From Candidatus Saccharimonadota bacterium (GTDB taxonomy: Bacteria; Patescibacteriota; Gracilibacteria; Absconditabacterales; Absconditicoccaceae), in the NCBI GenBank assembly GCA_965231145.1, contig OZ246420.1:450001-482000 (forward strand): 32,000 bases of DNA, read 5' to 3'. Each line of letters opens with the position of its first letter. The first letter of the stretch is position 1. Made by a program: the position numbers and the translations under genes. A model generated the notes under the pieces. The model was not told the origin of the DNA and searched no databases. It worked only from the letters and a program-made list of their open reading frames with translations. Below, one piece after another: positions 1 through 32,000 of this stretch.

Positions 1-84
1 CTCGACATGTCCTCCATGCCCAAAAGTACCGTCGACATATACTTTTCGGTCGACAGGCATAGAAGCAAGAGTCTCTTTCGCCAT
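1..84 (-). CDS. rsmH: 16S rRNA m4C1402 methyltransferase RsmH, first 28 codons only (gene runs off the window)
   Basis: The minus-strand ATG at 82-84 reads MAKETLASMPVDRKVYVDGTFGHGGHVE. VDGTFGxGGH is the N-terminal SAM-binding motif of RsmH/MraW. Confidence 0.55.
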   Translation of the reverse strand, partial: MAKETLASMPVDRKVYVDGTFGHGGHVE

Positions 85-133
85 AACTGGCTGGTGACGT
101 AACATAAGGCTAACTAACTTATAAAGTTGTAGA

Positions 134-196
134 GCAATTGGCAGCTAGCAGTTAGCATATCCCCTGCTAGTTGCTACCTGCTATAATCTACCTGCC
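134..196. repeat. Word-repeat imperfect palindrome (family A)
   Basis: Sequence is gcaattggcagctagcagttagca..tgctagttgctacctgctataatctacctgcc. The 17-mer gcaattggcagctagca (134-150) recurs exactly, inverted, at 19584-19600. The 14-mer tgctataatctacc (179-192) recurs at 24800-24813. Confidence 0.6.
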
Positions 197-237
197 ATAT
201 TAGTGAAATAAGGCTCAAAAACCACTATAAGTTACAA

Positions 238-265
238 TTGACTTAGATAAGCCGCTCAGTACAAT
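238..265 (+). promoter_or_regulatory. Sigma70-like promoter P1 (TTGACT-N16-TACAAT)
   Basis: TTGACT lies at 238-243 and TACAAT at 260-265. Promoter and leader are near-duplicates of those at 773-866. Confidence 0.6.
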
Positions 266-272
266 TTAACCC

Positions 273-286
273 TGTCGATCTCGACA
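273..286. promoter_or_regulatory. Perfect palindrome TGTCGATCTCGACA just downstream of the -10; candidate operator
   Basis: The 14-nt dyad sits right after the P1 -10. The equivalent position after P2 (808-821) carries TGTCAATATCGACA. Confidence 0.3.
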
Positions 287-325
287 AGCGTCATTAAAAA
301 TTAATCACAAATCTAAACACATTTT

Positions 326-703
326 ATGAAAAAAGCATTCTTATTGTTTGCAGCAAGCTTACTAACTACTACATGCGCTGTAGCCGCAAAACGCATCACA
401 GTGGATGCGGCTATGAAGCAAATCGCATCTGTTCTTCCGCAGCAGGGACCATCTACAAAATGGCTCTACATTGAAGCGGGTAAAGAGACCTGTAAAGTGT
501 TCAATAGCACAGACGGTCATACTCATGAATTTACCCTTTCTCATGTCGTATGGAAATACGATGAATTGACAGGGAAAATACAGAAAAACACTTCTGTATC
601 TAAGAAAGCGGCTCGTACTATCCGGCGTTTTTGTCGTGATATAAGCGAAAACGACTATTCCGTCGAGTATGTCTCTAAAGCGCAGGCTGAATGTATGAAC
701 TAA
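326..703 (+). CDS. Small secreted orphan protein (125 aa)
   Basis: Intact ORF with N-terminal signal peptide MKKAFLLFAASLLTTTCAVAA and a TAA stop. It has its own promoter and terminator, and I recognise no family. Confidence 0.7.
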   Translation: MKKAFLLFAASLLTTTCAVAAKRITVDAAMKQIASVLPQQGPSTKWLYIEAGKETCKVFNSTDGHTHEFTLSHVVWKYDELTGKIQKNTSVSKKAARTIRRFCRDISENDYSVEYVSKAQAECMN

Positions 704-720
704 TGCTAATATATTATCAA

Positions 721-750
721 TCAGCCGGTCCTCCGGCTGATTTTTCTTTT
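721..750 (+). terminator. Rho-independent terminator
   Basis: Hairpin tcagccgg-tcc-tccggctga followed by a T-run. Confidence 0.8.
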
Positions 751-772
751 CTAAAAGAAAAACCAGTTATCA

Positions 773-800
773 TTGACTTATATTGCTGGCTCCGTACAAT
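773..800 (+). promoter_or_regulatory. Sigma70-like promoter P2 (TTGACT-N16-TACAAT)
   Basis: TTGACT lies at 773-778 and TACAAT at 795-800. The leader is homologous to the P1 leader and includes the dyad at 808-821. Confidence 0.6.
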
Positions 801-1848: not shown

Positions 1849-1861
1849 TTTGAATCGGGTC

Positions 1862-2237: not shown

Positions 2238-3023
2238 ATGAGAAAAATCACAAACAGGACCTTTCTAGTTTCGGAAGAAAAAAAGGAAACTTTACATGTA
2301 TTTACTGTGGGAGATAAGAAATTTTGTCTTCATCAAGTTTTGCGTGAAGAGTCGGGTGAGAGCATAATAATCAATAATATCTATATTGTACCGTACGAGT
2401 TTGAGTGCAGTTTTAAGTCATTGTATGTATTCTTGGAAGTCGCTCAGCCCACATCCTATTTGTCTATCGTGGGCAAAGATGATAAAAGCATTACTGCGAT
2501 TGGTCGTGGCTTCGAAAACTATGATGCGTATAAGACTTTTTCTGAAAAAATGAAGATAAAACCTTCATCAGAGGAAGCATATCAATTCTTTGACGCACTT
2601 GAAGGTACTAACAAGATTTTGTTCGCAATGATGATTGCGGACTTACCTGATGAAATGATAGTTCCTTTCCAGCCAGCAGATAGTGTGCCCGTTTCCCCAA
2701 AGCCTCCACTTGATACGCCAGTTTCATTTGAAGTATTGCTTAAAGCATATAATCACAAACCTGATTCAACACTTCTAATGAACATAAGCTATCACCTTGC
2801 TTATTCTGATAAGGGAGATGTCACCTATGATGTCCTGAAATATGCTCATTCTGATGTTCTTCAGGTAGCGTTCAACTGGGTTAACCCGCCCCGTCTTACT
2901 CCTGAAGAAATAGTGAAAATATGTCAAACTCGCAGGGATGAAACAATAACAAGGCATGCCCTGGCCAGTAATCGGCTTGATCCGAGCCAAGCAAATATAG
3001 TATATGCGCTTCTATCATCTTAA
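2238..3023 (+). CDS. Orphan protein (261 aa), paralogous in part to the 3206-3607 product
   Basis: Intact ORF with a TAA stop. It shares VFTVGDKKFCLHQVLREESGE / ENYDAYKTFSEKMKIKPSSEE with VFMVDSRVYTAEMSILQQEGE / TDYASYAAFCTAHDSKPVEEE of the next cassette. Confidence 0.65.
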   Translation: MRKITNRTFLVSEEKKETLHVFTVGDKKFCLHQVLREESGESIIINNIYIVPYEFECSFKSLYVFLEVAQPTSYLSIVGKDDKSITAIGRGFENYDAYKTFSEKMKIKPSSEEAYQFFDALEGTNKILFAMMIADLPDEMIVPFQPADSVPVSPKPPLDTPVSFEVLLKAYNHKPDSTLLMNISYHLAYSDKGDVTYDVLKYAHSDVLQVAFNWVNPPRLTPEEIVKICQTRRDETITRHALASNRLDPSQANIVYALLSS

Positions 3024-3205: not shown

Positions 3206-3607
3206 ATGAACAAACAATTCTCTATTGTTATGCTTACCCCAGGGTTCGCATCAAACAATTTCCGTAAAGATGTTTTTATGGTAGACAGCCGGGTTTACAC
3301 TGCTGAAATGTCAATTCTTCAGCAAGAAGGCGAAATAGTGTGCCATATAAAGCATGAAGGCGTTATTATAATGACTCTCTATTATGCTTCTAAAGAGCAT
3401 GCTATGGAAGCTGCTACTATTACAGACTATGCGAGCTATGCTGCTTTTTGTACAGCGCATGACTCTAAGCCAGTGGAAGAAGAAAAGGGCCTGAAACTCC
3501 TTATGACTAACGGGGTAACTATCCCGCAGCTCATAGAGCTTTTCAATCCTCATCTTACTGATGCTTACTGGGCCGCCTTGGAAGAGGTGAAAGCAAACAT
3601 CAACTAA
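3206..3607 (+). CDS. Orphan protein (133 aa)
   Basis: Intact ORF with a TAA stop, its own promoter and terminator, and partial paralogy to the 2238-3023 product. Confidence 0.65.
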   Translation: MNKQFSIVMLTPGFASNNFRKDVFMVDSRVYTAEMSILQQEGEIVCHIKHEGVIIMTLYYASKEHAMEAATITDYASYAAFCTAHDSKPVEEEKGLKLLMTNGVTIPQLIELFNPHLTDAYWAALEEVKANIN

Positions 3608-3700: not shown

Positions 3701-4741
3701 ATGAATTACGAGCGCTTTGAGCAAGCATGAAAGAAAATATTTTTGGTAGATATGAAGCAGGATAAGACGGCTTCTGGTTTTTCGTCGTTGGCTGATGGTG
3801 GGATTCGTAAGATGCTTGCTACAGGTAAGAAAGTATTGATCATTGCCAATAAGAAATGATATGCCACGGGTATGCTGTGCGATGACTGCGGGTATATTCC
3901 CAAATGCGACCACTGTGACATTCCTGTCGCGTTTCATCAAGATGAGAACCAGCATCTGTACGGTATTTGTCATATCTGCAAGAAGCACTACCCTGCATTT
4001 GGCGAATGTCCGCAATGCCGCTGACACAATATTCATCTCTATGGAAAAGGCGTGCAGAAACTGGAGACGATTTTGGGTAAAGAGTTTGGTACGAAGAAGA
4101 TCCTGACGATTGAGTCTGAAACCGCTGGTAGTATGCCGAAGGTAAAAAAGATCTTGCAGCAACTGCCTGAGACACAGATCATTATTGGTACATCTCTCCT
4201 CATGACTCCTCCGGCAGGTCGAAAGCCAGATCTTGTGGTGGTCATGAACGCTGATAGCTCGCTACATATTCCTGACTACAAATCACATGAAAAAGCATTT
4301 TCTACTCTCAAGACGATTATTGATAATTATCCCGATAATATCATTGTCCAATCATATCACGTAGACAATCCCGCGATACGCTTTGCATGCAGCGGTGATA
4401 CGGACGCGTTCCGCGTCCGAGAGGATCAATTTCGCAAAGATCATAGCTATCCTCCATATAGTCAGCTCGCGGTGCTTTTGTTCAAAAATGAGATCGAACA
4501 GAAGATGTTTACGACAGTCAACAAACTCTATCAAGAACTTCTGTTTCTCAATGAGCAGCAAAAAGCCGGCATCGAAATCTATGCGACGCCGCCACTTGTC
4601 TACAAGATGCACGATAAGTACAGATATAACATTGTGCTCAAAGGCAAAGAACTTCGTCCTTTCCTTGACCGTGCATTTGACCAACTCAACATCTTTTGAC
4701 GCGGCTTCAAGATAGACCGGATGCCGGAATCACTGATTTAA
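3701..4741 (+). CDS. priA: Primosomal protein N-prime (PriA), C-terminal piece only (346 aa)
   Basis: Table 25 joins 3701-4051 to track ORF 4052-4699 and reads on to the TAA at 4739-4741. Four in-frame TGAs lie at 3728, 3857, 4022 and 4697. Recognisable features are LVDMK, NKK-G-YA, four CxxC pairs (CDDC, CDHC, CHIC, CPQC), YPPYSQL and a C-terminal KIDRMPESLI. Nothing upstream of LVDM is present here, and there is no Shine-Dalgarno sequence. Confidence 0.75.
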
Positions 4742-4824: not shown

Positions 4825-5382
4825 CTAATATTTTTCTGCTTTTGTTATGATCCCATCATTACCAACTCCCTGTAGGGAAGTCGAATAATAGATTTCATTA
4901 TCAGCCCCTAGCCAGACGTGTGCCATATAAGGTACGAGTACTTTACAGGCAACATAATTGTCCAATTCAAGTGACTGAAGTTCGTATGGTGTGCCATCAT
5001 AGCCTGCCGATAGTTTCTTGTCAGACTGCTCTACAAAAAACGAGAGTTGTGTATAGCCGTTTTCGGGTGCTTGAGTTTTTTCGTAGTAAACAACTTTACA
5101 TAATGGATTAGTAATCTCATAATACGTAAAGTCGCCTGAACCAGCCCAATAAGGCCCTTCTCTAGATTCTGCTACTCTTTTTTTCATGTAATACCCCATC
5201 CCTTTAACGGCTTTCACTACTTTATTCATGAGGTCTTGTTCTTCAGAACGAATGCCCAATGAAGCCATGCATACTGTTTTTTTATCCTGCATATATTGTA
5301 TAGCTTTGAATGCTAATGCATGAATACGTGCCTGTTCTGGAGTGAGTTTTTCTTGTGGGAATAATGATATATGTGGTGTCAT
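4825..5382 (-). CDS. Orphan protein (185 aa)
   Basis: Intact ORF from ATG to TAG. I recognise no motif. Confidence 0.55.
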   Translation of the reverse strand: MTPHISLFPQEKLTPEQARIHALAFKAIQYMQDKKTVCMASLGIRSEEQDLMNKVVKAVKGMGYYMKKRVAESREGPYWAGSGDFTYYEITNPLCKVVYYEKTQAPENGYTQLSFFVEQSDKKLSAGYDGTPYELQSLELDNYVACKVLVPYMAHVWLGADNEIYYSTSLQGVGNDGIITKAEKY

Positions 5383-5442: not shown

Positions 5443-6510
5443 TTAATAATACTGATCGGGAAATCTTGTTCCATCTGTATCGATAATATCTTTTCTTTTT
5501 ATTCCCCCTTTATATTCATAATTTTCCCATTCAGTCAATTTTTTTTCAAAATTTTTCGTTCAAAGATCCCCAGGACTCATTCATATGAGTCTTGTATTTA
5601 TACGAGGGTTGTTGTGATATGCACGGATGAAATCCTCTATGAGAGCCTGTTTCTCTGCATTGCCAGTCTGTCGCCTATCCACATATGCTTTTACATCATC
5701 AATTCCACTGAAATAACAGAAAAACGCCTCGAGAAACCACTGTTGGCTTGAGCCTTCTCCCCGTGAAGGTAACTTTCAAAGCTTTTGTATATGTAATGCT
5801 TCGGATAGTTCATTCAGTATTTCTTGAGGAAGTCACGTAGATCTAATATCTTGTTCCAAAGCATTTTTTAGATGAGAAAAATCTCCAAAGTCATTGACTT
5901 GTGATTCCCAACCATTGTGAATACAAAAGCTATGTGCGTCTCCTAAGGCTCTCTCCTTTGCTTCTTGCTGGGTCAATTTTTCGCCAGCCTGCATAAAATC
6001 ATTACGATAGTAGTCATACATGCTGTTATATGTATTTTTATATTTTACTGCAGTTTTTATAATGTTATTCAATAATCCCGAGAGAGACGCTCTTGAATAT
6101 CCAAGAGATAGTGATCCAAATCTCGGAAACCTTTTATTCCCTTTATTTTGTATATAAAAACCATAGCTGTCTTCTTGCATCTTAGCATTGGTAGTTACTA
6201 TTTCTTTAATCACCCTTGTATATCAGTTTGTATCAACAAGAATCTGTTTAAGTCGATATAGCAGATCTCTTTTTATACCGATTTTTAACAGAGCATAGAT
6301 ATGTGTTCTAGGAAGTCATGTTACTATTAAACTCTGTTCTATTTCCTGTAAAACCCCTGTTATCTTAAGAACAGATTGCAGATTGTCTTTGTTCTTTTTC
6401 AGTAAATTATCTATGTATGGCGAAAATTCTGCAGCATTACCAGAAAATTGAGCTTGTTCAAAAGCTGTCTTTAAGGTGTCATAGGTAAATTTCTCTGATC
6501 AATGCATCAT
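5443..6510 (-). CDS. Orphan protein (355 aa) visible only in table 25
   Basis: Track ORF 5833-6213 extends in frame both ways through 7 TGAs (6499, 6316, 6223, 5833, 5776, 5581, 5560). It runs from the ATG at 6508-6510 to the TAA at 5443-5445. I checked every codon and found no TAA or TAG. Confidence 0.6.
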
Positions 6511-6633: not shown

Positions 6634-8931
6634 ATGGATATAAAGCAATATATAAGCGGACAGTTGAACGCAGAGCAGACAGGTGCAGCCCTTCATACTG
6701 ATACATCATCACTCATCCTTGCGGGTGCGGGTTCCGGAAAGACAAGAGTGCTCACCTATAAGATAGCATATCTTTTGTATGAGAAAAAAATAAAACCAGA
6801 CCAGATCTTGGCGGTTACTTTCACCAACAAAGCTGCAAAGGAGATGAAAGAACGTCTTGTGAAAATTTCAGAAGAAATTTCGACAACTCAAAACTCAAAT
6901 CACAAAACTCAAAACTCCCCCGCCGAATCAGTCATGGATTTTGATTCATTGGTTTCTGGAGTTCAGGAGGCTACCTCAGTTGCCTCTTCTTCACTCCCTC
7001 ATTTCAATGCTACTTCATTCAAATGGATAGGAACCTTTCACGGTATGTTTCTTCGTTTTCTTAAAGAAGAGATGAAGCATGCTGAAGGCTTTGGGTATAA
7101 CGGAAGCTTTGGTGTCTATGATGAGCAGGAAGCGCAGTCTGTCATGAAAGATATCATCAAGCAGCTCAAGATGGAAGAAGATGTCGAGCTTAGAGAGGTA
7201 AGATCATTTATTTCAAAACTGAAAAGTCAGGGTATTACTGCGAAGCAGTTTGGTCATGGTAACGATGGCTACGAGCAAACCATGGGTATGATCTATGAGC
7301 TTTATGAAAAAAAACTCAGGGAAAATAATAGTTGTGACTTTGATGATCTGTTGCTCCTTCCCTATCTTATCCTCAAGAAATATCCAGAGATTGCTCAGCG
7401 CTGGCAAAAGAAATTTTCATATATTCTTGTCGATGAGGCGCAGGACACAAACTGGATTCAATTCGAACTCATGAAACTACTGACAGCCGGTGGTAGCAAT
7501 ATCACCTTCATCGGTGATGATTACCAAAGTATTTACCGCTGGCGCGGTGCCGTCATGGAAAACTTCCTCCAGGTAAAAAGGATACGGCCGGATATTGAGA
7601 TCTATAAGCTCCAGACAAATTATCGTTCTCGTCCACACATTGTGAACGCAGGTAATTTCATCATTAAAAATAATAAGAACCAGTACGATAAGACGGTCGT
7701 TCCGCACCGTTCTGGGGAAGAAAAGATTATGATTTTTAACCACGGAGATGAAACTGATGAGGCTATGACACTCATCGATCTTATGAAGAAGATGAAGACT
7801 GATAAAAATAAGTCACGAGCAGACTTCGCTATCCTCTATAGGACGAATGCACAGTCAGCGATCTTTGAGCAGGTGCTTTTGCAGGAAGCTATCCCCTATA
7901 AGGTCTTTGGATGATTTAAGTTCTTTGAAAGAAAAGAAGTAAAAGACATTATCTCATATTTGAAATACTTATTGAATCCCAGAGATACTGTAGGTCTTAA
8001 GAGAATCATCAATACGCCAAAGAGAAAGATATGATCGGATAGCGTTGCTAAACTTGAGGAATATGCGGCTGCGCATGATGTCTTATTGTCAGATGTGGTG
8101 GAACAGATCGACACGCAGCCGGTGACTATCGGGCCTGCGACACAAAAAGCAGTCAGCCAATTTGCAACTTCTATGAAGTTTCTCAGGCAGGCCGCAGCAG
8201 GACTCTCCCCCGCAAAGCTTATAGAGCAGATCGTGAAGACGATCAAATATAGAGACTATTTGATCGATGCAGAAGGTCGTGAAACAGGCGAGGAAAAGTT
8301 TGAAAATATCGGTCAGCTTATCAATATCGCCACAAGATACGACAGCGATGAGGTCGAAGAGCTCCAAAATGGCATGGTGCTTCTGACGCAGTTTCTCGAG
8401 GAAGTGTCGTTGATGACGGATATCGAAGATAATAATGAGTGAGAGTTAGAAGCAGTGAAACTGATGAGTATCCATTCGAGTAAGTGACTGGAGTTTCCTG
8501 TTGTCTTCATCGTAGGCCTGGAAGAAAATATCTTCCCATTGGCAAAGGCAGTGTTTGAGGAAGCTGAGCTTGAAGAGGAAAGACGTCTCATGTATGTTGC
8601 TATCACACGTGCAAAAGACCATCTCTTTATGTCTCATGCAAATAGCCGTAAACAGTGGTGACAAACTAAGTATAACGAGCCATCACGTTTCATTGAAGAG
8701 ATTCCCGAAGAACTGAAGAAAATGTTTGATCTGACTGCGGCGTCAGGAGCCACCAGAGCAACGAGCCGTTATGCGGTACAAACTACCCTCGAAGAAGGCG
8801 ATGTAGTCAAACATAAACTCTTTGGTATGGGTGTGGTCATCGAAGTATGGCGTGACACCGCAGTCGTCAGATTCCAAAACGAAAAGTTCGGTGTCAGAAA
8901 GATAGAAGCAAGATTCTTAGAAAAGAAATAA
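6634..8931 (+). CDS. pcrA: ATP-dependent DNA helicase PcrA/UvrD (765 aa)
   Basis: Track ORFs 6634-7914, 8086-8442 and 8722-8931 share one frame and are joined through TGAs at 7912, 8032, 8440, 8485 and 8659. Motifs seen are [42 protein letters not shown] and YVAITRAK. A low-complexity insert lies at about 6883-7010. Confidence 0.9.
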
Positions 8932-8999: not shown

Positions 9000-10529
9000 T
9001 TAGTGAATAGTAATCTGCATATGTACACTCTTCATGCTATTGTTCGTCCCATTTGCCATATAGTAGAGAAGGTTATGCGAGAACGGTGTGTCGAACAGTT
9101 GACTTGTTCTCATCTGGCCTGTAGGATGGGAAATGGTCACATGTTTTGGTGTATAGACTACTCCTCTTGTTGCCCATACCGGAAACACTCCTAAGATGCT
9201 TTTTTCTCTAACAGTTAATTCGATGCCGTATTTCTTTTCGAGTCCTGAAATTTCATCCGTATAGGTAGGTGGCACCGTCATCATATAACTAACACTGACA
9301 TGATATGTTCCTTTTGGGAGCGATGCTATATCCACGATATCTTTTGTTGTATCAATCACCCTTTTCCCTTCACTATTAGTAAAGACAATATTCTTCTTAA
9401 TGAACATATCGATCTTGTTATAACTGCTGTTATAATCCCAGAAGTAGATCTGATCGTCACGGAAACTGGTCGTGAGACCCTGGGTTACCAGTGATTTGGT
9501 AAGGCCTCCTCCGATGTCTTCAAGATAGACGTGCACGTAATTGTTATCCAGGAGATAACGAATATTTTTTATGGTGTTTTTTATAATAGTATCTTTTTGG
9601 CTATTGAGGATCGCTGCCACCTCTTCTAGATAATGCTGCTTCTTGTTTGGGAAGTTTCCTCCACGAATGATATCGGTAGCTGCGTTGGTAAACATCCATT
9701 CTCTGAGCTTCTTGTCAAAGTCAGGGATAAGATCCGCAAACATCTGTGAATTTACAAAGATGACTCCTCTCACCTTCTGGTGAAATGCATTTTCGTAGAT
9801 AGCTTTAATATTTTTTCCATCCATGTCGGTAAAGCCGAACTTATTGGACGCGAGAAATGTAATGGTGCTATCTCATGAAAGAAATGTATTGGTCGCCCAG
9901 TCTGGAGCCTGTACAGTGGCAGATGGATCGATCTTATTTGGATAGTAACTGTCCATGAGCTCAATATTTTTGATCCTTGCATCTTTGATAGTAACGATTG
10001 CAAATGAACCGAAAAACCCACCATTTGGACGTTTTTCTGCACTGTTTTGTAGTACGACGAGATATCTTTGTTCGCGATCTTCGCCTAAAAGAGAAAAGAT
10101 GTCGTTGTTGTATTGAGAAATATCACTGACGAGATCGATGATGCCTGCGTAATCATGGAGACCAAGCTGTTTGAGTTGGTCGGGATGATTTGAAAGGTAT
10201 TGGAGGATGTATTGGATATTACCTTTGTTATCTCTGAGAAAATGATCTTCTTCCTTGTCGTAGCTATGTTTTACAGCATCGATAGACATGAGTAGATTCG
10301 CAGTTTTCTGGTCTACTCCCATAAAATAAAATGCAAGGTCTTCCAGATTATTCGCAAAAAGATCTGTCTTGCTCTCGGCAAAAACAAGTCTTGAAACATT
10401 GTTATAGAGAGAAAAACACGAGAAAGCGAGAAATACTAAAATAACAAAACCCCGATTGACGTGTTTTGCATAAAATTTCCAATCTCTCTTTTCTGGCTTT
10501 TTCCAGCCAAATTCCTTATTTATTTGCAT
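9000..10529 (-). CDS. DUF4012 domain membrane-anchored protein (509 aa)
   Basis: Track ORFs 9873-10529 and 9000-9824 are joined in frame by the TGA at 9873. There is an N-terminal TM helix, and LQNSAEKRPNGGFFGSFAIV matches the DUF4012 signature (QN.aE.R.tGGf.Gs). Confidence 0.8.
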
Positions 10530-10661
10530 TACTCATGTGAGGTGTCTTAAATGAGTATTTGTGAGTGTCGAATTGGGATGATGATTAAGTATATACATAT
10601 CTTTATCCAGCGCAAAAGCAATGTGCACTATGATGCTATAGCCTGGTTAGCGTTGACATAA

Positions 10662-11213
10662 TTATGCTACGGTTTTAAATCAGGTTTCCTCTACTACGGA
10701 ATTGTTCGTCATGCAAAGTTCTCTCATGATCGAAACCATTCCATCGCGTAGATTCTTGCCATTGTCTGTGCTAGCACACTCTTCTATCACATAGGTGAAA
10801 TACCCCAGGTCAAATGCTTCCTGTGCAGTTGCAAAGACACAATCATAAATATCATATCCGACAATATGTACTTCTTCGATGTCATATTCCTGTAGTGCTT
10901 TATGAAGATCTGGATTTCATTTGAAACATGATTTCGTTGTTTTCTCCAGCGGTATTTGTGGTTTGTTAGCAGGAATATATGGGGCAATCATATTTTGATA
11001 GTCAGGATGAGACTTGGGAAATGTCCATTGTGCTTGTTGGTCCCATAGTGCCCCTTCTTCTGTATGGAACGACGCATTCACATAGAGATCATACTCTACA
11101 TACGATAATAATTTCTGAGTATATACAAAAGCTGAAGGCTCCTCTGCCATAAATCATTTCTGAAAATCTACGAGAATCAGTGCTTTGCATCTTCCTGATT
11201 GAGGTATTTTCAT
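10662..11213 (-). CDS. Isochorismatase-family cysteine hydrolase (183 aa)
   Basis: Joined through TGAs at 11154, 10917 and 10680. The D/K/C triad context is LILVDFQK-G-F, KTTKSCF and VGYDIYDCV. TAA stop. Confidence 0.7.
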
Positions 11214-11250: not shown

Positions 11251-12420
11251 TTAATTCGGTAGAGCCCATCGTGAACTATACTCATCTGACCATGCAAATG
11301 AAAATGTTGGATCGAAAGGATAAATAAGCTTTCAGTCCAGAGAGATAAGTTTCGCCTGGAGTCCGTCACGAAGGAGAATACATCTTATATTGCTTTGATT
11401 TTTGCCTGCCTCACAGAGCTCTGTTCGACTATGCTGGGTACTTTCTTTGATTGCTCATGCTTTTTGCAAGCATGTATAACTTGTTCCGCACTCTTCATGC
11501 TTCTCACTCGCTTCGGTGATGAGCTGTAATTGTATCTCAAACAGAGCTTTTCACCATGCTCTTTTTGCTTCAGATTCATCTTCGTTTGCAAGATTGGTAT
11601 ATCTGTCGTATCGCAGCGTAGCACTCTTCAAATGCTGTCCGGCTCTTCCATACACCAATGCGGCAAGTGTTGGCGTCAATGCAGGTGCATCATCATGAAA
11701 CGCAGAGATTCTATACTGCTCTGCTGCATGCTCACTGTCAGCAAGATACGTAAAGTAATTAAACGCCATATAATGCGGCAACTCATAGTTCATGCAAGGA
11801 TTTTCGATTTCCATATTTCATTCTGCTCTTTGCTCTTTGCTCTTTCAGTTTAATACTATGAACTCTTCTTCGGTGAGTCCTGTAATAACTTTAATCTTAT
11901 CTTCATTGCATAAATAATATTCTCATTTCTTTGCAAGGCGTATTGCCTCCTCTCGAGACTTTTCCTGCGATTGATTATAATGACCGCTTGCGGTCTCCCG
12001 CTGTAGCGGGGTTTTTGGTAAAGGAATAATGAGTTGTCCAAATATGTATGGATAGTTCCAAAAGGGCGATAAGGTGGTGAGAGAATCGAGAACCGTTGCG
12101 ACGCCATTGTTGTCGAGTGTGTCGGGGTTTGTACCGATGTACTGGATGCTCCCAAGCCATAAGATGTCAGCATAGAGTTGTTGCCGAGGCATGAACTGAC
12201 AGAGCTTTTGGTTTGTATGACAGTATTCGTTATATGCAGGAAGCATGGGGGTTTGGAAAATAGCATGCGGCTTTTGTCTTTGTGTTTCAAGATGTGCGAC
12301 ATACGGCATAGGATTGATGCTTTCAGTCAGATGGCTTGCTTTTTGTGTGCGCACAAAAACACTGTTGTAACTTACAACAAGCGCAAGTGATATGGTTATG
12401 ATTCATACAGATTTCCGCAT
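11251..12420 (-). CDS. Signal-anchored orphan protein (389 aa)
   Basis: Track ORFs 11923-12354 and 11551-11814 plus their flanks form one frame with 7 TGAs. The N-terminus MRKSVGIITISLALVV is hydrophobic. An in-frame ctgctcttt-word module lies at 11821-11848. Every codon was checked through to the TAA at 11251. Confidence 0.6.
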
Positions 12421-19759: not shown

Positions 19760-20971
19760 CTACTTTCCTCCGTTCATAAGTCTTTTTCTCATGAATGGTG
19801 GAGTTTCGAAATCCTGCTGTGGTTGCTGTGGAGCTTCCATAGCAGATGTGGCAGGAGTGTTGTCTCTTGCCGTGTTAAGCTCTCTTGATACAAAGTCTTC
19901 ACTTCTTGTCGGTCTTGCTGATCCCATAAATCCACTTGTCGATCTCATTCCAGTATATTTGCTTCCTGACATCTCTCTAAGTGATCCTCCCTTAATCATA
20001 ACCTCCTGATTAGAGTCAGAGAACCCAGTTGCGATGATCGTTACTTTCACTTCACCCTGGTATGCTTCATCGATAGACATTCCCCAAATGATGTTTGCTT
20101 CAGGGTCTGCGATCTCTTCTACGATACGAGCTGCTTCTTGTACTTCGATAGGAGTAAGGTCATCACCACCAGTTACGGCGAAGATAACGTTCTTAGCTCC
20201 AGCAAGATGAGACTCAAGAAGTGGGTTGTCGATGGCGCGTCTTGCAGCTTCTACTGCTCTACTTTCACCATCTCCGTATCCGATACCAAGAAGTGCTGTT
20301 CCAGAACTTTGCATGATACGCTTGATATCTGCGAAGTCGATATTGATGAGACCTGGCTTGATAACGAGGTCAGTAATACCCTGTACACCGAGTGTCAGGA
20401 TCTTGTCGATCATAGAAAATGCCTGTTTGAATGTTGTTTTCTTATCAACGATATTGAAGATTTTGTCGTTCGGGATGATGATAAGTGTATCAACATTGTT
20501 CTTCAATCTTTCAAGACCGTCGATAGAGTTAATAAATCTCTGCTTCCCTTCAAATGAGAATGGCTTTGTAACAACAGCTACTGTAAGGATACCCATTTCC
20601 TTTGCGATTTGCGCGATAACAGGTGCTCCACCAGTACCAGTTCCACCTCCCATGCCAGCTGAGATGAACACCATGTCAGCATCCTTAAGCATATGCTTGA
20701 TGCTTTCTACGTCTTCTTCAGCAGCCTTTCTTCCGATATCAGGATTTGCTCCTGCACCGAGACCCTTTGTAAGGTTAAGACCGATATTTACTTTATGAGG
20801 TGCAAGGCTATTTACAAGCTGCTGAGCATCTGTATTTACTGAGATGAACTCTACACCTTGGATACCTTCACCGATCATGCGGTTTACTGCATTCACTCCA
20901 GCTCCACCAACACCAATCACCTTGATACGTGCGCCTGGGATAAATTCTGGATTAATTTCCTGTATTACCAT
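19760..20971 (-). CDS. ftsZ: Cell division GTPase FtsZ (403 aa)
   Basis: GVGGAGVNAV, GGGTGTGGAP and NIDFAD are present. No in-frame TGA. TAG stop. Confidence 0.95.
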   Translation of the reverse strand: MVIQEINPEFIPGARIKVIGVGGAGVNAVNRMIGEGIQGVEFISVNTDAQQLVNSLAPHKVNIGLNLTKGLGAGANPDIGRKAAEEDVESIKHMLKDADMVFISAGMGGGTGTGGAPVIAQIAKEMGILTVAVVTKPFSFEGKQRFINSIDGLERLKNNVDTLIIIPNDKIFNIVDKKTTFKQAFSMIDKILTLGVQGITDLVIKPGLINIDFADIKRIMQSSGTALLGIGYGDGESRAVEAARRAIDNPLLESHLAGAKNVIFAVTGGDDLTPIEVQEAARIVEEIADPEANIIWGMSIDEAYQGEVKVTIIATGFSDSNQEVMIKGGSLREMSGSKYTGMRSTSGFMGSARPTRSEDFVSRELNTARDNTPATSAMEAPQQPQQDFETPPFMRKRLMNGGK

Positions 20972-21007: not shown

Positions 21008-21066
21008 GATACAGATACAGATGACAGATACAGTAGTTAGCGTATCGGTATCTTGTATCAGTATCT
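21008..21066. repeat. GATAC-word element (family B, copy 1)
   Basis: gatacagatacagatgacagatac-N16-gtatcttgtatcagtatct. Both arms are identical to those at 30018-30067. Confidence 0.7.
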
Positions 21067-22653: not shown

Positions 22654-23517
22654 TTAGTTGATATTCCCCCCCTGCCATACAGCACACTTTTTTTCTGTTC
22701 CATATTGTGAACACTTCTGGAGGAACATATCGCTTACCCTGGTATCAAAGAATATTCTATGACTTTCTTTACATTGTACTGCTGTATTACATGTTCGGAA
22801 TGTGATCGCACCTGTATTAACATCTGCGAGTGCTCATGAAAACCATTGTGATGGTTGGATAAGCATTTTTCTCGCATTTATAGATGCCGAGTTTTGAAAT
22901 CCTACGCGGAGCGCGGTAGTGTTTGGATATGCACTTGAGATAGTATACGTGACAAAGAACTCAGCATTTGCACACCCTTTGACAGGGGTATATTCTGGTG
23001 AAAGTGGATAGTTGATTCACCATACGGGTAGATATAAGATACCATAGACATCTCCTGTGAGATCCAGAGGCTCATCTATATCCCCTGTTCCTCTGTACAG
23101 ATATGCCCAGGAAGTAATATTTGAAGAACGAAGTGCTTCACCATCATAACTGCCAAGAACGCTAAGATTGGATGGCGTTTCCCTGAGAGCTTGAACAATT
23201 CAGGAAGCATTTTCTACATTTACGATAAACTGAGGGTCGCTATATTTGCTAGGAGTTCTCAAAACGATGTTATATCGATCAGGAGTCTCTATATTGTTTC
23301 CTCCAGAGAGAAAGAGCCCTGAAAGAGTTCTTGTCCTTCATAGAAGCGCGGCATTACTGATTTCTCTCAGATTATAGAACATATTGTTTATGCAACTTTC
23401 CCCTGCATAGTAGATCTTATTTTCATTTGAAAAATACTGTCTGCTCATCAGGAACATGATGCTCAGTATGGCCATAACAATCATAAACTCCACGATCGTG
23501 AATGCGGGTTTTTTCAT
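22654..23517 (-). CDS. Type IV pilin-like protein (287 aa)
   Basis: MKKPAFTIVEFMIVMAILSIMFL is a prepilin-type N-terminal cleavage/methylation segment. The frame continues through TGAs at 23338, 23200, 23017 and 22834 to the TAA at 22654. I checked it triplet by triplet. Confidence 0.7.
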
Positions 23518-23584: not shown

Positions 23585-24727
23585 TTATTTCACCAGTGGT
23601 CTGATCACATACTTATAATTAGCATCGTCTTTGTCCATAAAGATGACAGGTTTTTCACTATTGACGATATTCATAGAAATGTCACTATTTTCTGTTGCTC
23701 TGACGAAGTCTGTGACATATTTGCCATTGAGACCGAGTATGACATCTGGTCCATCAACGATGGCTGAAAGTGTACTATTTGCTTCTCCTCTATCAGTTTC
23801 TCCTGAATTGATGAAAAGAGTGCTTGGCGAAATCTGTAGAGAAATATAATTATTGATATCTCTTGTGATGATAGAAATTTTTCTGATAGCCTTCTCTATT
23901 TGATTCTTGTCGATCATGACCTTTGTGTTGAAGCTTGTTGGCATGATGTTCTCATTTTCGTATTCCGGGAATGAACCTTGGATAAGCAGAGAGGTCATAG
24001 TAACCTGCATACCATCCAGAGATGCGCTACATGAAAGGAGGTTATCTGAAAATTTCATAGCGATCTGTTCTCCACCCTTTCCGATGAAATAATCTACTAC
24101 TTTCTTGATATCACCAATATTTGACTTAGGAATGATAACATCCATGGCTCCTGCATCACCGTGAAAATCGATCTTGTACTCGGCAAGTCTGAACGAATCA
24201 GTTCCGACGAATACGAGCTTATTACCACCTTCTGATGCTTTGAGTCTCATCAAAATACCTGTTAATACAGGAGAAAAATTCTTTTCTGTCACTGCGTATT
24301 CTACTTTCCCGATACCTTTTGAAAAGGCCTGTGCTTCAAACGTAATACTCTTATCACTTTGTACCTCCGGTACTGCAACATATTCGCTTGCAGAGATACC
24401 TTTGATCTTGAAGTCATCTGATGCAGTCTTGATAGTCATAAGATCCTTACTTCCATCGATATGGATCTGGACCTGGTCGTCATCGAGCGTCTTGATGATA
24501 TCTCCGAAAGTTCTTGCATTGACTGTCAGTGCTCCCTCATTGTCGATACTTGCAGGAATTTGTACTTCGATGTACTTTTCCATGTCCGTTGCTCTCAGTA
24601 AGAGTGTATCTATATTGCCCTTAATATATATGTTTTCCAAAATAGGCAGTGTCGAATGCTTAGAAACGAATCTTCCTACAATATCGATAATCTCCTGAAG
24701 CTGTAGAGTATTGAGGGTTACTTTCAT
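23585..24727 (-). CDS. dnaN: DNA polymerase III beta sliding clamp (380 aa)
   Basis: Full-length ORF with typical beta-clamp layout, starting MKVTLNTLQLQEII.. and ending ..YKYVIRPLVK. The SD gagaaagg precedes the ATG. No in-frame TGA. Confidence 0.9.
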   Translation of the reverse strand: MKVTLNTLQLQEIIDIVGRFVSKHSTLPILENIYIKGNIDTLLLRATDMEKYIEVQIPASIDNEGALTVNARTFGDIIKTLDDDQVQIHIDGSKDLMTIKTASDDFKIKGISASEYVAVPEVQSDKSITFEAQAFSKGIGKVEYAVTEKNFSPVLTGILMRLKASEGGNKLVFVGTDSFRLAEYKIDFHGDAGAMDVIIPKSNIGDIKKVVDYFIGKGGEQIAMKFSDNLLSCSASLDGMQVTMTSLLIQGSFPEYENENIMPTSFNTKVMIDKNQIEKAIRKISIITRDINNYISLQISPSTLFINSGETDRGEANSTLSAIVDGPDVILGLNGKYVTDFVRATENSDISMNIVNSEKPVIFMDKDDANYKYVIRPLVK

Positions 24728-26469: not shown

Positions 26470-26563
26470 ATAGGAAAACGTCATAAAAGTTCATAAAGTG
26501 GAAGGTTTATAAAGTTGAAAGTTCAAAGGAATTTTAACTTTATACTTTACAAACTTTATGAAC
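26470..26563. repeat. Word-repeat imperfect palindrome (cataaagt / actttat words) overlapping the priA-N stop codon
   Basis: The 11-nt arm gttcataaagt (26489-26499) is a perfect inverted repeat of actttatgaac (26553-26563). The latter contains the TAA that ends the priA N-terminal piece. Confidence 0.6.
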
Positions 26564-27359
26564 TAAATATTTGTACTCCGGTCATTTCGAGTCTCGCCTC
26601 ATGTAATTGGGCAATTTTTTTCATAATTTCGCGTGTATCGTAGCGAGGATCTTGCTGGCTTTTATAGTATCGTTGGTGACTATCCATAAGCGTAATGAGT
26701 TTAAGATCTTTTCGATCCTGAAATACCTGAGATGATGTACAAATAAGTGTATTTACATGACCCATTTTGATTCCCCATCGAGCTTTGTCTTTCTGCTGCT
26801 GTGTCGAAGTGCTGTTGAGTATGACAATGCCTGATTTTTCAACTATTCCTCGCTTTTCGAGCGTGTTTATCATAGTTCGGACGTCAGGGAAGACGATAAG
26901 TTGTTGTCCCTCCATATTATTTTGAATTTTGAATTCTATATTTTGAATTATTTTTGTATCTGTATCTTGTATCTGTATCTTAGGGAAAAAAGGCTTCTTT
27001 TTGACCGTAAGTTCTTTCTTAAATAAGTCTGCTAATTCTCCTGTTACAAATAACTTTACGACATTTTTATAAGATGTATAATACTCCTTCACCATTCGTC
27101 TTATCAATTCTACAGTTTCTTTGCTGAGAAATCATTTATGATGCAAGGTTAGCTCTTCAGTAATTTTCGATTTCGGAGTCAATTCTGCTCTCTGCTCTTT
27201 GAATTTTGATTTCCCCTCATTTCCTCGTTTCCTCGTTTCCTCGATAACAAGAAACATATCGTGAGAGCCAACTAATAAGTCTCACACCAAAAAATTATCT
27301 TGGTCTGTTCGACAAAGCTTATCTCCGCCATATCGTCACTGGAAGGCGTATAATAACAT
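26556..27359 (-). CDS. priA: Primosomal protein N-prime (PriA), N-terminal piece only (267 aa), helicase motifs degenerate
   Basis: Track ORF 26556-27107 extends upstream through TGAs at 27132, 27282 and 27336 to the ATG at 27357-27359. LIRRMVKEYYTSY and QQLIVFPDV...RWGIKMGHVNTLICTSSQVF...LMDSHQRYYKSQQDPRYDTRE follow the PriA pattern. There is no GxGKT, and DEEH is replaced by MDSH. The ORF stops where the 3701-4741 piece begins. Confidence 0.65.
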
Positions 27360-27796: not shown

Positions 27797-29995
27797 TTAT
27801 TCTTTCATAGCCTCTATCACCTCAGGTATAAACTCTTCCAATGGAATATTGAGGAAAGTCTCACAATTTCTGAGGTGTTCTCTGCTCACACCAGCGGCAA
27901 ACTTGCTATCTTTGATCTTTTTCATGACCGATTTCACCTCCATACCCTCGAAACCTTCTGGCCTCATAAGTGAGTATGCATAAAGGAATCCAGAAAGCTC
28001 ATCGACTGAGGCCAGATATCTTCTGATAAGAAGATCGACTGGGACTCCGGTTTTCTCGTGGTAGTGAGAACGTATGTCGTCGATAAGTGCCTGTGGTAAA
28101 TTGATTTCTCCTACGATAGTATGAAACTCATCCCCCAGATGTTTATCGGCATCTTTCCCAATATGATCCCAGTCTACATCGTGCAATAGTCCTGCAAGAT
28201 ACCAGACATCTTCATCCTGACCAAGCTTTTTCGCAAAATAATGCATCACCTTTCCAACCTGTTCGCAGTGCTTGCGAGTCTCTGTCAGATATTTATCTGC
28301 AAGTGCCTGTGAATCGCTAATAGAGGGTATATTTTCATATGAGACTTCTCTGTCTGTATGTATTGGTGTAACTGAACCTTCTTTATTTGATTCTGAACTT
28401 TGATTTTTGCTTTCTGAATTTCAATGAAGTGGTTTCATCATAGGGAAAAGTATAACATCACGGATGTTTGACTGCTCGGTGAGTAATGCGAAAATACGGT
28501 CAATTCCCATACCCCAACCAGATTGTGGAGGCATACCGTATTCCATAGCTTGAACAAACTCAGGGTCTCCTGATGTTGCTTCTTCGTCTCCTGCGGCAAG
28601 CGCTCATGCCTGTGCATCAAAATTAGCCTGCTGCTCTATTGGATCGACAAGCTCTGAATATGCTTTGATCACCTCCCATCCATTGATAAGAAGCTGCCAC
28701 TGTTCTACTATGTTTTTGTCGCTATCGCTTGTGCGCGCAAGAGGCTGCATCAGTTTTGGATAGTTGACGATGAAGGCCGGACCGACGATCTTAGGTCTTG
28801 TCACCTTTTTGTAGAGGTAGTCGATCATCGTTGTCAGACCTTGCTTATCCATCCCTTCCCAGCTATGACCTGCTGCTTTGATGTCAGCTCTGAGTTTCTC
28901 GTCATCTCCTTCCTTATATGCGCCCACGTCTATTCATGAGTCTTTCTTGATCTGGTCAACATAATTGACGCGCTGCCATGGTGTCTGAAATGATACAGAC
29001 TTAGATACTCCTTGTTTATCCACAACATTGATCGTCTGCTGAAGTTCTGGGATATTTGCAAAGATGTAGTTGAACATCTCTTCAGTAAACTTCATATTAT
29101 CTTCATGATTCCAATACGCAGCATAGTGCTCGATCATCGTGAATTCCTGATGATGACTTGGATCTGATCATTCATTGCGGAAATCTTTCGCTACTTCAAA
29201 TACCTTTTCTAACATTCCGACAGTAGCTTTCTTGAGGTTCGTTTCTGGGGAAATTCTCAGGTACATATCGAGATCAAAGTCATGGTGATGTGTTACGAAG
29301 GGCTTCGCCGCTGCCCCAGAGGCAGAGTTTCCAAGCACTGGTGTCTCAATTTCTATAAAACCTTTATTCCAATAGAAATCTCTTATCGTCTTCATAAATT
29401 TTGCACGAAGCTTCATTCTATCGAGCGATTCTCTATTGAAGATCATATCGAGATATCTTTGTCTGTATGCTCTTTCCTGGTCTTCTCCGATCCCATGAAA
29501 TTTGTCACCAAGCGGCTGTATCGCCTTTGCGAGAAATGTATAATTTGTCACGAACAATGTAAGCTCTCCCTTATGTGTCACAAAAAGCTCTCCCTCTACT
29601 CAGATGAAGTCACCAACATCTACCAGTTTTTCCAATATCTTATATGCGGTCATTTCTAATTCCTCCTTGTTTGATTGTGCTTTGTGACCTGTGCTTTGTG
29701 AATTGATAACGCAGTTATCCTTGTGAAACATAAGTTGAATCTCTCCAGACTCATCCAATAACTTTCAAAAAGAAAGTTTACCATGACTTCTGAAAAGAGT
29801 GAGCCTTCCGGCCGTTTTATACTGATTTTTTGGAGCAGGAATAATTTCTTCTACATCGCGGAAACTTTCACCTTCCTTTCCCAGAAGATCGCTGATCATC
29901 GATGTCTTATCATACTTTTGTGCATAAGGATTTATCCCCAATGAACGGAGTGTTTCCACTTTCTGTTTTCTTACTTCATATTCTGAAAGAGCCAT
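27797..29995 (-). CDS. lysS: Lysyl-tRNA synthetase (class II) fused in frame to a C-terminal HD-superfamily domain (732 aa)
   Basis: Track ORFs 29765-29995, 29168-29581, 28934-29137, 28604-28927 and 27797-28249 share one frame with TGAs at 29765, 29602, 29168, 28934, 28604 and 28421. [13 protein letters not shown] and ILFPMMK are present. A linker then leads into [32 protein letters not shown] checked every triplet and found no TAA or TAG. Confidence 0.85.
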
Positions 29996-30017
29996 TTATC
30001 ATCATAACATAATTAAA

Positions 30018-30067
30018 GATACAGATACAGATGACAGATACGGTCTCAGTATCTTGTATCAGTATCT
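30018..30067. repeat. GATAC-word element (family B, copy 2)
   Basis: gatacagatacagatgacagatac-N7-gtatcttgtatcagtatct, 23 nt upstream of the lysS ATG. Confidence 0.7.
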
Positions 30068-30181
30068 ATTGGAATAATGCTTTATTCTATATAGAAAGCT
30101 GGCTTATTTTCAACCAGAACCCATGTTAAATAAGAGATAAAAGATAATAAATAAAAAATATTTCTTATCTCTCATTTTTAT

Positions 30182-31135
30182 TTATAAGAAATAATGTTTA
30201 TACGTTACATTCTCTTTCGGCTTCGTATTCGCTTCAAGGATGTATCTACGAAACCGAGTTCTTTGTTTCTTTGCAAAGTAATGTGTGTTTTTCTTGAGTT
30301 CCTCTTCGAGCGTCTCTCTGCCATATTTCCCTTGCCGATAGAGTACGGTTTCCTTATAGCCGATGCCATTCATCGCTTGATGCTCCAACGTATATCCTTG
30401 CTTCATCAGTCATTGGACCTCTTCTAGTAGTCCTGTCTGGAGCATCTCTTTAATACGGCAATTGATACGCTTATTGCTGTCGTCTTTTTCACGCCAGAGA
30501 CCGATCATGAGTAATGGCTGCTTGACTGGCATCTCATTGGCAAGTGAGGTCTTAGTCTTACCAGTTTTTTCATATATTTCCAAAGCACGGATGATATATC
30601 TCGTACTATTTGGATGGTGTTTATTTGCTTCTTCGGGATCTATTTCTTGTAATCTTTTTCGAAGGATCCCTGGTTCTTTTTCCTCTTCAGCAGACCATTT
30701 GTCGCGAAGTGGCATATCTGCTTCGATATCAGGCATCTCAAAGTTTTTGTAGATCATATCAATATAAAGCCCCGTTCCTCATACGATAAGTGGGATATTG
30801 CCTCTTGCTATGATCTCTGGTATGAGTCTGTCGGTTGCTGTTCTTCGCTGTCCAGCAGTATACGTCTCATCAGGATTGACAATATCTATCTGATGGTGAG
30901 GAACTTTCTGACGAATCTCTTCAATTACTTTATCTGTCCCAATGTCCATAAAACGAAAAATCTGACGTGAGTCAGCTGAAATGATTTCTACCGGAAAATG
31001 TTCCGCTAATAAAAGAGAAAGCTTGCTTTTCCCTGTCGCAGTCGCTCACCGTATCACTACAGCGCCTGTTGGATTGCTTTCGTGAAAAGTCTGAATTGTT
31101 TTTTTTGCATCCTCTAGGATGTCAGATACTTCCAT
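30182..31135 (-). CDS. miaA: tRNA dimethylallyltransferase MiaA (317 aa)
   Basis: Joined through TGAs at 31046 (P-loop G-ATATGKS), 30779 (LIV-G-GTGLY) and 30410. SADSRQIFRFMDIGTDK is present. The frame was checked and ends in TAA. Confidence 0.9.
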
Positions 31136-31137
31136 TA

Positions 31138-31512
31138 TTAGTCGGGGTCTTTTTGTGCTAATAGTAATTTTGCAATTTGAGCTTGGTCGGGAAATAATTT
31201 TTCGATAAGGTATATCATATAAGCTGCTGCTTTATCAGGAGGATAATAGTAATTTAACCTAGCTCTTATCTTCATAGCATTACGCCTTATACGTTCTCTC
31301 TGCTCCCTAGTTCGAGGAAGTGTGAGAAATTGTTCTTGGAATTGATCATACCAGCCCTGCTCTATCATAACAAAACACATATGCAATCTGTTTTTACCAA
31401 TGTGTTCATCAGCAAGCAGTAATTCAATGGTTTGGTCCGGTTGCTGTTGAATGCGCCCAAGAAGTGTATCTGATATATCTATAAGACCTGTATTCACCTG
31501 TGCCTCAACCAT
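31138..31512 (-). CDS. Orphan protein (124 aa)
   Basis: Intact ORF whose TAA lies 2 nt upstream of the miaA ATG, suggesting translational coupling. I recognise no family. Confidence 0.5.
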   Translation of the reverse strand: MVEAQVNTGLIDISDTLLGRIQQQPDQTIELLLADEHIGKNRLHMCFVMIEQGWYDQFQEQFLTLPRTREQRERIRRNAMKIRARLNYYYPPDKAAAYMIYLIEKLFPDQAQIAKLLLAQKDPD

Positions 31513-31531
31513 CTCGTTTCGCTTTTACTGG

Positions 31532-32000
31532 CTAAAACTTACTAGAGAAATTTTCTTCCACCTGTTTCCAGTTGATCACATTCCAGAAGTTTTCTATGTA
31601 TTCTGCTCTCTTGTTTTGGCATTTCAAATAGTATGCGTGTTCCCAAAGATCGATCCCCATTACTGCTTTCTCTCCGAGCATCAAAGGATTGTTCTGATTT
31701 GCTGTCGTCATGATTTCGAGATCATCATGTTTCTTGATCACCCATGCCCACCCAGAACCAAATACACTCATGGCAGCATCCGTAAAAGTCTTTTTGAATG
31801 CATCCATACCGCCAAATGAACCTGCAATTACCTTCTTAAAAGCATCGCTTGGCTCACTCTTTTCTGGTGACATAATCTTCCAAAAAAAAGCATGATTCCA
31901 GTGACCTCCGCCATGGTTCCTTACTGCATTACGCATATCTTCTGGCAGGATATCTATTGACTGTAACAGCTCTTCGAGCGATTTTTCTTCAAACTCAGTT
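31532..32000 (-). CDS. sodA: Fe/Mn superoxide dismutase, N-terminus off the window
   Basis: HGGGHWNHAFFW, FGSGWAWV and DLWEHAYYL are the Fe/Mn-SOD metal-ligand motifs. The frame stays open to position 32000. TAG stop. Confidence 0.85.
   Translation of the reverse strand, partial: TEFEEKSLEELLQSIDILPEDMRNAVRNHGGGHWNHAFFWKIMSPEKSEPSDAFKKVIAGSFGGMDAFKKTFTDAAMSVFGSGWAWVIKKHDDLEIMTTANQNNPLMLGEKAVMGIDLWEHAYYLKCQNKRAEYIENFWNVINWKQVEENFSSKF

Follow-up and report, generated by a model that had tools for sequence, protein, structure and literature searches.

Translation of UGA as glycine is established for the Absconditabacteria and Gracilibacteria (PMC8629427, PMC8080830). It dates to 2013 (Campbell et al., 2013; Rinke et al., 2013, both as cited in PMC8629427), is backed by proteomics in the sister group BD1-5 (PMC4032931) and is codified in NCBI translation table 25. 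For Absconditabacteria, reassignment of CGA and CGG to tryptophan was predicted by Codetta (Shulgina and Eddy, 2021, eLife, PMC8629427) and is treated as given in PMC13092985. Here we analyse the genetic code of a 32-kb stretch of DNA (contig OZ246420.1 of assembly GCA_965231145.1, positions 450,001-482,000; G+C ~39%), referred to as the window. It very probably belongs to an Absconditabacterales (SR1) chromosome in which UGA encodes glycine, both CGA and CGG encode tryptophan, and translation terminates at UAA and UAG only. The correct translation is table 25 with CGA and CGG changed to Trp; none of tables 11, 4 and 25 as they stand yields the right proteins.

The window resembles table 25 (Campbell et al., 2013; Rinke et al., 2013, via PMC8629427) in the glycine reading of UGA, in the stop codons UAA and UAG and in the clade. 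Table 25 keeps CGA and CGG as Arg, whereas those of the window behave as Trp. All three reassignments of the Codetta code for Absconditabacteria (PMC8629427) are also found in the window, and AGA is the dominant Arg codon, the use of CGN codons being depressed (per 10,000 codons: AGA 196, CGT 74, CGC 45, AGG 35). Table 4, used by Mycoplasma/Spiroplasma and several insect endosymbionts, is alike in having UGA as a sense codon and in the fragmentation that table 11 causes. There UGA means Trp, whereas in the window it means Gly and the extra Trp codons come via CGA and CGG. Capture of an Arg CGN codon by a tRNA that resembles or descends from tRNA-Trp is also known from the CGG to Trp change in Anaerococcus and the RFN20 Bacilli (Onthovivens in PMC13092985; PMC8629427), and there, as in the SR1 case, the anticodon of the capturing tRNA is one mutation away from CCA. 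In Anaerococcus and RFN20 only CGG has changed and CGA is read as Arg by tRNA(ICG), whereas in the window both have changed, which fits the lack of tRNA(ACG) reported for bacteria of the candidate phyla radiation.

Under table 11 the window presents itself as numerous short open reading frames. With TAA and TAG as the only stops, open stretches of 100 codons or more doubled in total length from 32.8 kb to 66.4 kb, and the longest of them grew from 496 to 776 codons. Freeing another stop instead brought a far smaller gain (TAG, 40.8 kb; TAA, 49.9 kb). When TGA is read as sense, the window holds 30 non-overlapping, full-length gene models. In this 32-kb sample 25 of them end at TAA, five at TAG and none at TGA. 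They contain no in-frame TAA or TAG and 68 in-frame TGA codons, which are spread over 18 of the 30 models; start codons are provisional, and some TGA near N-termini possibly lie 5' of the true start. Table 11 cuts these 18 genes into 2-11 pieces. Single Pfam matches, namely UvrD_C, tRNA-synt_2, Peptidase_M3, IPPT and SmpB, continue across TGAs.

These counts agree with an earlier note on this DNA, which had estimated about 65 in-frame TGAs in 17 genes and had held that every coding sequence stops at TAA or TAG, as all 30 models do. The ten TGA coordinates it had quoted from PepF, MiaA, LysRS, PcrA, FtsA, SmpB and peptidase S51 all proved to be coding-strand TGA codons in the frame of the named gene. 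The fragmentation it had predicted for table-11 annotation is seen in public gene calls. Identical genes are present in Logan assemblies of runs ERR4405439-41, where the same sequence recurs on several contigs assembled independently. Table-11 calls on these contigs split FtsA into pieces of 305 and 83 amino acids, PepF into 260 and 150, LysRS into 137, 67 and 107, and MiaA into 56, 115 and 63.

The residue at TGA was examined in ten proteins by comparison with solved structures from standard-code organisms (PDB), TGA being masked as X against alignment bias. Glycine is the majority residue at 16 of the 28 aligned TGA sites (binomial P ~3e-11 with an assumed Gly background of 8%), while neither Trp nor Cys is found at any of the 28. 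The Gly sites include HEAGH of PepF, the P-loop and GGTGLY of MiaA, FRNEG of LysRS, both sites of SmpB and four of five in PcrA.

Related loci were collected by an FtsZ search with one genome per GTDB species, and 80 loci (1.29 Mb) were kept. By this single marker gene, all kept loci that carry a clade name are Absconditabacterales/SR1 or Gracilibacteria/'Peribacteria', in line with the placement proposed earlier. RAAC1_SR1_1 and SR1 HOT-345 are in the set, and the best FtsZ relatives are 91% identical. All open frames of the relatives were translated with TGA masked and aligned to the window proteins, and the codon pairs were tabulated. Opposite the TGAs of the window stand 190 Gly codons (GGN), 125 TGA, 41 Lys codons as the next commonest class and no Trp codon. 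Conversely, the 2,560 TGAs of the relatives are matched in the window by 1,726 Gly (67%), 11 Trp and one Cys. UGA of the window is thus supported as a glycine codon on comparative grounds, and the proposal of Gly, rather than Trp or selenocysteine, is upheld both by the PDB proteins and by the relatives, which exchange TGA and GGN.

A screen of all 64 codons against the relatives gave convincing flags only for TGA (Gly), CGA (Trp) and CGG (Trp). AGG also looked odd, but few and variable positions underlie its signal, and it was therefore not taken as reassigned. The 9,499 codons of the window include 36 CGA, 15 CGG and 84 TGG, so that under the Trp reading CGA and CGG make up 38% of the Trp codons (51 of 51+84; a small sample that is not genome-wide). 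Window CGA stands opposite CGA (34%), TGG (30%) and Phe (9%), with Arg at ~1%; window CGG stands opposite TGG (35%) and CGA (26%). Together, TGG, CGA and CGG account for ~70% of the relatives' codons aligned to window CGA/CGG and Arg for ~1%, Leu or Ile also being met. The control codons CGT, CGC and AGA are found opposite Arg or Lys.

Standard-code homologs could be aligned at 21 CGA/CGG sites, 16 of them in PDB structures and five, in the protein encoded at 26556-27359, in Escherichia coli PriA. At none of the 21 is Arg or Lys the majority residue. Five sites face Trp (PepF 478, MiaA 294, UppS 17 and 194, PriA-like 194), among them the conserved Trp of FWQRQ in PepF, of TWF in MiaA, and of DGNxRWA and FLLWQ in UppS. 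Nine of the other 16 are opposite Tyr, Phe or His, and the remainder are mainly hydrophobic.

The best 120 database homologs of MiaA are all SR1/Gracilibacteria proteins translated with table 4 or 25. This would make a test of TGA circular, and the set was therefore used for CGA/CGG only. At three CGA/CGG sites its columns contain R and W only, whereas in columns of true Arg R occurs together with K. TGA sites carry W in this alignment (at the P-loop Gly, in 84 of the 120 proteins), which reflects translation with table 4. Mistranslated versions of SR1 MiaA, with W at TGA and R at CGA/CGG, are thus widespread in reference collections. The proposal of table 25 made in the earlier note holds for UGA; it overlooked the 51 CGA/CGG codons, which behave as Trp, so that a table-25 translation leaves Arg at ~38% of the Trp positions.

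Pfam identified PcrA/UvrD, DUF4012, isochorismatase, SmpB, peptidase S51, the N-terminal part of UvrB, oligoendopeptidase F, HD_3, FtsZ, FtsA, the pilin-like protein, DnaN, UppS, an AP-endonuclease-2 fold protein, the fusion of LysRS with an HD domain, MiaA, an Fe/Mn superoxide dismutase and the C-terminal half of PriA. When six hypothetical proteins were retranslated with both reassignments, Pfam returned a single weak match, to a methylase. The genes with recoded codons, and those that avoid them, are the following.

3701-4741, plus strand: C-terminal half of PriA with Cys-rich region, helicase lobe 2 and PriA_C (Pfam PriA_C); TGA at 3728, 3857, 4022 and 4697, CGA/CGG at 4220, 4418 and 4718
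5443-6510, minus strand: hypothetical protein, open only with TGA as sense, no Pfam match; seven TGA, three CGA/CGG
6634-8931, plus strand: PcrA/UvrD helicase (Pfam UvrD-helicase and UvrD_C across TGAs); TGA at 7912, 8032, 8440, 8485 and 8659, CGA/CGG at 7585 and 7816
9000-10598, minus strand: DUF4012 protein (Pfam DUF4012); two TGA, one CGG
10662-11213, minus strand: isochorismatase-family protein (Pfam Isochorismatase, 11-159, across two TGAs); three TGA
11251-12420, minus strand: hypothetical protein, judged by the codons of relatives; seven TGA, seven CGA/CGG
12432-12902, minus strand: SmpB (Pfam SmpB, 4-151); TGA at 12819 and 12597
12908-13534, minus strand: peptidase S51 (Pfam Peptidase_S51); three TGA, one CGA (13280)
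13555-15033, minus strand: N-terminal gene of UvrB; no TGA, no CGA/CGG
16050-17750, minus strand: oligoendopeptidase F (PepF, M3; Pfam Peptidase_M3); TGA at 16968, 16806, 16668 (in HEAxH) and 16545, CGA at 17589 and 16317
17785-18366, minus strand: HD_3 phosphohydrolase (Pfam HD_3); two TGA, three CGA
18408-19523, minus strand: putative methyltransferase-like protein (weak N6_N4_Mtase match); ten TGA, three CGA
19760-20971: FtsZ, avoiding recoded codons
21098-22297, minus strand: FtsA (relatives and PDB FtsA); TGA at 21380, CGA at 21908
22654-23517, minus strand: pilin-like protein with N-terminal methylation motif (Pfam N_methyl); four TGA, two CGA
23585-24727: DnaN, avoiding recoded codons
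24855-25559, minus strand: undecaprenyl-diphosphate synthase UppS (PDB UppS); TGA at 25494, CGA/CGG at 25509, 24978 and 24975
26556-27359, minus strand: fragment resembling PriA lobe 1 (BLASTP to E. coli PriA); three TGA, nine CGA
27797-29995, minus strand: lysyl-tRNA synthetase (LysRS) fused to an HD domain (Pfam tRNA-synt_2, 173-520, across three TGAs); TGA at 29765, 29600, 29168, 28934, 28604 and 28421
30182-31135, minus strand: MiaA (PDB MiaA); TGA at 31046 (P-loop), 30779 and 30410, CGA/CGG at 31049, 30845, 30659, 30335 and 30254
31532-31999: superoxide dismutase SodFe, avoiding recoded codons

In several of these proteins both kinds of recoded codon can be read against the same homologs. 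Three PDB PepF proteins have HEAGH opposite HEA-TGA-H and an invariant Trp (FWQRQ) opposite CGA 16317. In three PDB MiaA proteins, two of the TGA sites are Gly throughout, CGG 30254 is opposite an invariant Trp (TWF) and CGA 30845 opposite Phe. Four of the five TGA sites of PcrA are Gly in PDB PcrA, UvrD and UvrD1 alike, and its two CGA/CGG sites show Tyr/Phe/Tyr and Tyr/Leu/Tyr. PDB homologs of peptidase S51 have Gly opposite TGA 13271 and Tyr opposite CGA 13280. The TGA site of FtsA is Gly in 46, TGA in 28 and Ala in two of 76 relatives, and its CGA site is TGG (38), CGA (20), Phe (15) or CGG (3); PDB FtsA proteins have Gly/Ala/Ala and Tyr/Phe/Tyr at the two sites, respectively.

For other proteins the evidence concerns mainly one of the two. 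Both TGA sites of SmpB are Gly in three PDB SmpB proteins, and relatives have TGA or GGN only. TGA 3857 of PriA is opposite the Gly of NRRGF in PDB PriA, TGA 18304 of the HD_3 protein is opposite Gly (PRSGW) in PDB homologs, and the DUF4012 site 9873-9875 is Gly in three of four relatives. The TGA sites of LysRS, compared with PDB LysRS, comprise three that are Gly in all, one Ala and one variable. In PDB UppS the Trp of DGNxRWA is opposite CGA 25509 and the Trp of FLLWQ opposite CGA 24978; in 29 relatives both positions are always CGA, CGG or TGG, and at CGG 24975 28 of them have CGA/CGG/TGG and one has Met. The PriA-like fragment matches residues 247-340 of E. coli PriA (BLASTP, E = 2e-9), with CGA 26778 opposite a Trp.

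Two further genes were judged from relatives. For the hypothetical protein at 11251-12420, three TGA sites are GGN or TGA in relatives, and four CGA/CGG sites are TGG, CGA or CGG. For the 18408-19523 protein, 51-55 relatives have GGN or TGA at the conserved TGA sites and CGA or TGG opposite CGA 18810.

From published work on the clade, UGA would be read by a tRNA-Gly(UCA), for which G1:C72, C2:G71, G3:C70 and U73 would be expected, and release factor 2 would be absent; CGA and CGG would be read by tRNA(UCG) and tRNA(CCG) with tryptophan identity elements, both probably derived from tRNA-Trp(CCA). Among the related loci, all 12 tRNA(CCG) genes, labelled Arg by ARAGORN, have A1:U72, G73 and U20, and three tRNA-Trp(CCA) genes of relatives share these features. 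Features of this type are the criteria for tryptophan identity in PMC8629427, and in carrying them the tRNA(CCG) genes of the window's relatives resemble the Codetta code. In two related loci a tRNA-Trp(CCA) and a Trp-like tRNA(CCG) stand in tandem, 56-169 nt apart (L061, 17511-17827; L080, 7760-7962), which is consistent with the CGG reader having arisen from a duplicated tRNA-Trp. No tRNA with anticodon UCA was found among the 1.29 Mb of related loci, nor was a tRNA(UCG) seen in them. BLASTN of the relatives' tRNA(CCG) and tRNA(CCA) against the window and its flanks gave chance 10-12-mers only. No prfB gene was found in the window and its flanks, the only part of the genome covered.

The closest competitor of the code proposed here is plain table 25, in which UGA is Gly and CGA/CGG are still Arg. 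NCBI lists it as the official table for the clade, and a few CGA/CGG sites are opposite non-aromatic residues such as Gln, Val and Asn. However, none of the 21 sites aligned to standard-code proteins has Arg or Lys as its majority residue, and five of them are conserved Trp. Relatives swap CGA/CGG with TGG and Phe and almost never with AGA, CGT or Lys codons, whereas the control Arg codons do swap with these, and the database columns of MiaA are pure R/W mixtures. We consider plain table 25 improbable. Far less credible still is UGA as Trp, as in table 4 of the Mycoplasma type, although this is the commonest bacterial reassignment (PMC8629427) and many public pipelines translate SR1 in this way, as the W at TGA in database MiaA illustrates. 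No Trp occurs at the 28 PDB-aligned sites, relatives never have TGG opposite a window TGA, the window has Trp opposite just 11 of the 2,560 TGAs in relatives, and relatives retain a tRNA-Trp with anticodon CCA; Trp is also an implausible residue for the P-loops and HEAGH in which TGA sits. We give equally little credence to UGA as a persisting stop codon, with the in-frame TGAs due to pseudogenes, sequencing errors, selenocysteine or programmed read-through. The genes do look broken under table 11, and public calls are in fragments. Yet 30 genes hold 68 in-frame TGA and not one in-frame TAA or TAG, the same sequence occurs in several independent assemblies, TGA sites are kept as TGA/GGN across the 80 relatives, and a stop would inactivate the essential genes lysS, smpB, ftsA and pcrA. 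As for selenocysteine, Cys is opposite only one of the 2,560 TGAs of relatives, and a scan of the window found neither a selenocysteine insertion sequence nor any other Rfam element at the gathering threshold.

A fourth alternative is ambiguous or inefficient decoding, in which UGA would be mostly Gly and CGA/CGG mostly Trp, with appreciable misreading or slowness that is tolerated in some genes. It draws on the very uneven spread of the recoded codons. Twelve of the 30 genes have no TGA, for example FtsZ (45 GGN, no TGA), UvrB-N and DnaN (permutation test of heterogeneity, p = 5e-5), whereas TGA makes up 10 of 27 Gly codons in the 18408-19523 gene and 7 of 18 (39%, the maximum) in the 11251-12420 gene. 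Likewise, CGA/CGG supply nine of ten Trp codons (90%) in the PriA-like fragment and none of nine in LysRS. Low-level alternative readings of UGA were seen in BD1-5 proteomics (PMC4032931), and U34 wobble ambiguity between UGA and UGG has been noted as a potential (PMC8629427). On the other hand, ordinary codon-usage bias or differences in gene age could explain the uneven spread equally well, and recoded codons in catalytic motifs (P-loop, HEAGH, conserved Trp) favour faithful decoding. We regard this alternative as rather unlikely, though less so than the three above.

Some points weigh against the preferred code itself, with UGA as Gly and CGA/CGG as Trp. Distant homologs have residues other than Gly at ~12 of the 28 TGA sites compared with PDB proteins (Ala, Ser, Glu/Asp, Lys or variable), so that the assignment of Gly is statistical rather than per site; non-Gly residues opposite some TGA sites are expected for non-conserved positions. 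A few CGA/CGG sites face the non-aromatic residues Val, Leu/Ile or Gln. The comparison with relatives stays within one clade, and its sites are therefore not phylogenetically independent. ARAGORN found no tRNA genes in the window or in ~12 kb of flanks of the same genome taken from Logan contigs. In the literature searched, CGA/CGG as Trp is a computational prediction for which no experimental confirmation was found, and for the window organism the assignments of UGA and CGA/CGG rest on sequence comparison.

The usage of the former Arg codons differs from that reported. Per 10,000 codons the window has 38 CGA, compared with <37 in PMC8629427, at the top of the range, and 16 CGG, compared with <7 in all but one species there. 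Usage of CGA/CGG appears to have rebounded in the window lineage, since the two codons supply 38% of the Trp codons among 9,499 codons, a small sample that is not genome-wide. Use of TGA in the window lineage is below that of most SR1 relatives.

Several genes of the window are split or fused. The UvrB-N gene (13555-15033, minus strand) ends at TAA and covers only about residues 1-490 (ResIII, UvrB_inter); a UvrB-N frame of 486-508 amino acids is also found in six SR1 relatives. The C-terminal part of UvrB with the UVR domains is encoded by a separate gene of 162 amino acids ~5 kb past the right end of the window (L082, 6566-7054). PriA is apparently split between the genes at 3701-4741 (plus strand) and 26556-27359 (minus strand), 22 kb apart on opposite strands. 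The lobe-1-like fragment has MDSH in place of DEEH, and inspection by eye showed no Walker A motif. The junction between LysRS and the HD domain coincides exactly with TGA 28421-28423. This TGA was considered as a stop between the two and rejected because the related locus L004 has the same fusion in a single open frame; LysRS of the closest relative (L002) stops at the junction point.

Five consecutive genes at the left end of the window (326-703, 864-1793, 2238-3023, 3206-3607 and 4825-5382) encode hypothetical proteins without TGA and without a Pfam match, two of which begin with a signal-peptide-like sequence. Homologs of the five were found in none of the 80 related loci, and the genes may be lineage-specific or acquired.

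Two kinds of repeat were observed. The 11-mer GATACAGATAC occurs in eight copies with at most one mismatch, compared with 0.64 expected. The copies, located at 21008-21065, 26956-26979, 30018-30066 and 12478-12488, are clustered, partly as inverted pairs, in the ftsA/ftsZ spacer, in the miaA/lysS spacer and inside the 26556-27359 frame; the motif may be a regulatory or terminator-like element. Tandem repeats of period 7 lie within coding sequence at 18939-19022 (minus strand), 6885-6917, 26919-26949 and 29675-29700. The repeat in the 18408-19523 gene amounts to ~25 amino acids inserted in frame, with five TGA (18939-19010), and this insertion is missing in ~40 of 53 relatives. Further period-7 repeats match lineage-specific inserts in PcrA and LysRS.

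Both reassignments are already known, UGA as Gly since 2013 and CGA/CGG as Trp since 2021. Since both have been described before, novelty is low, and the value of the window is practical rather than conceptual. Each available table makes its own annotation error: table 11 fragments 18 genes, table 4 puts Trp in P-loops and zinc motifs, and table 25 replaces Trp by Arg at 51 positions. Each of these errors can be seen in public gene calls or protein databases for the window organism or its relatives. For CGA/CGG as Trp, which has no NCBI table, the window is a clean comparative data set. The recoded codons of the window are strongly partitioned by gene, which raises a further, tentative possibility: if this were genome-wide and tracked expression, the reassignments would still carry a cost or ambiguity in translation. 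If true, the lineage, in which former Arg codons supply ~38% of the Trp codons, would lend itself to the study of how reassigned codons come back into use.

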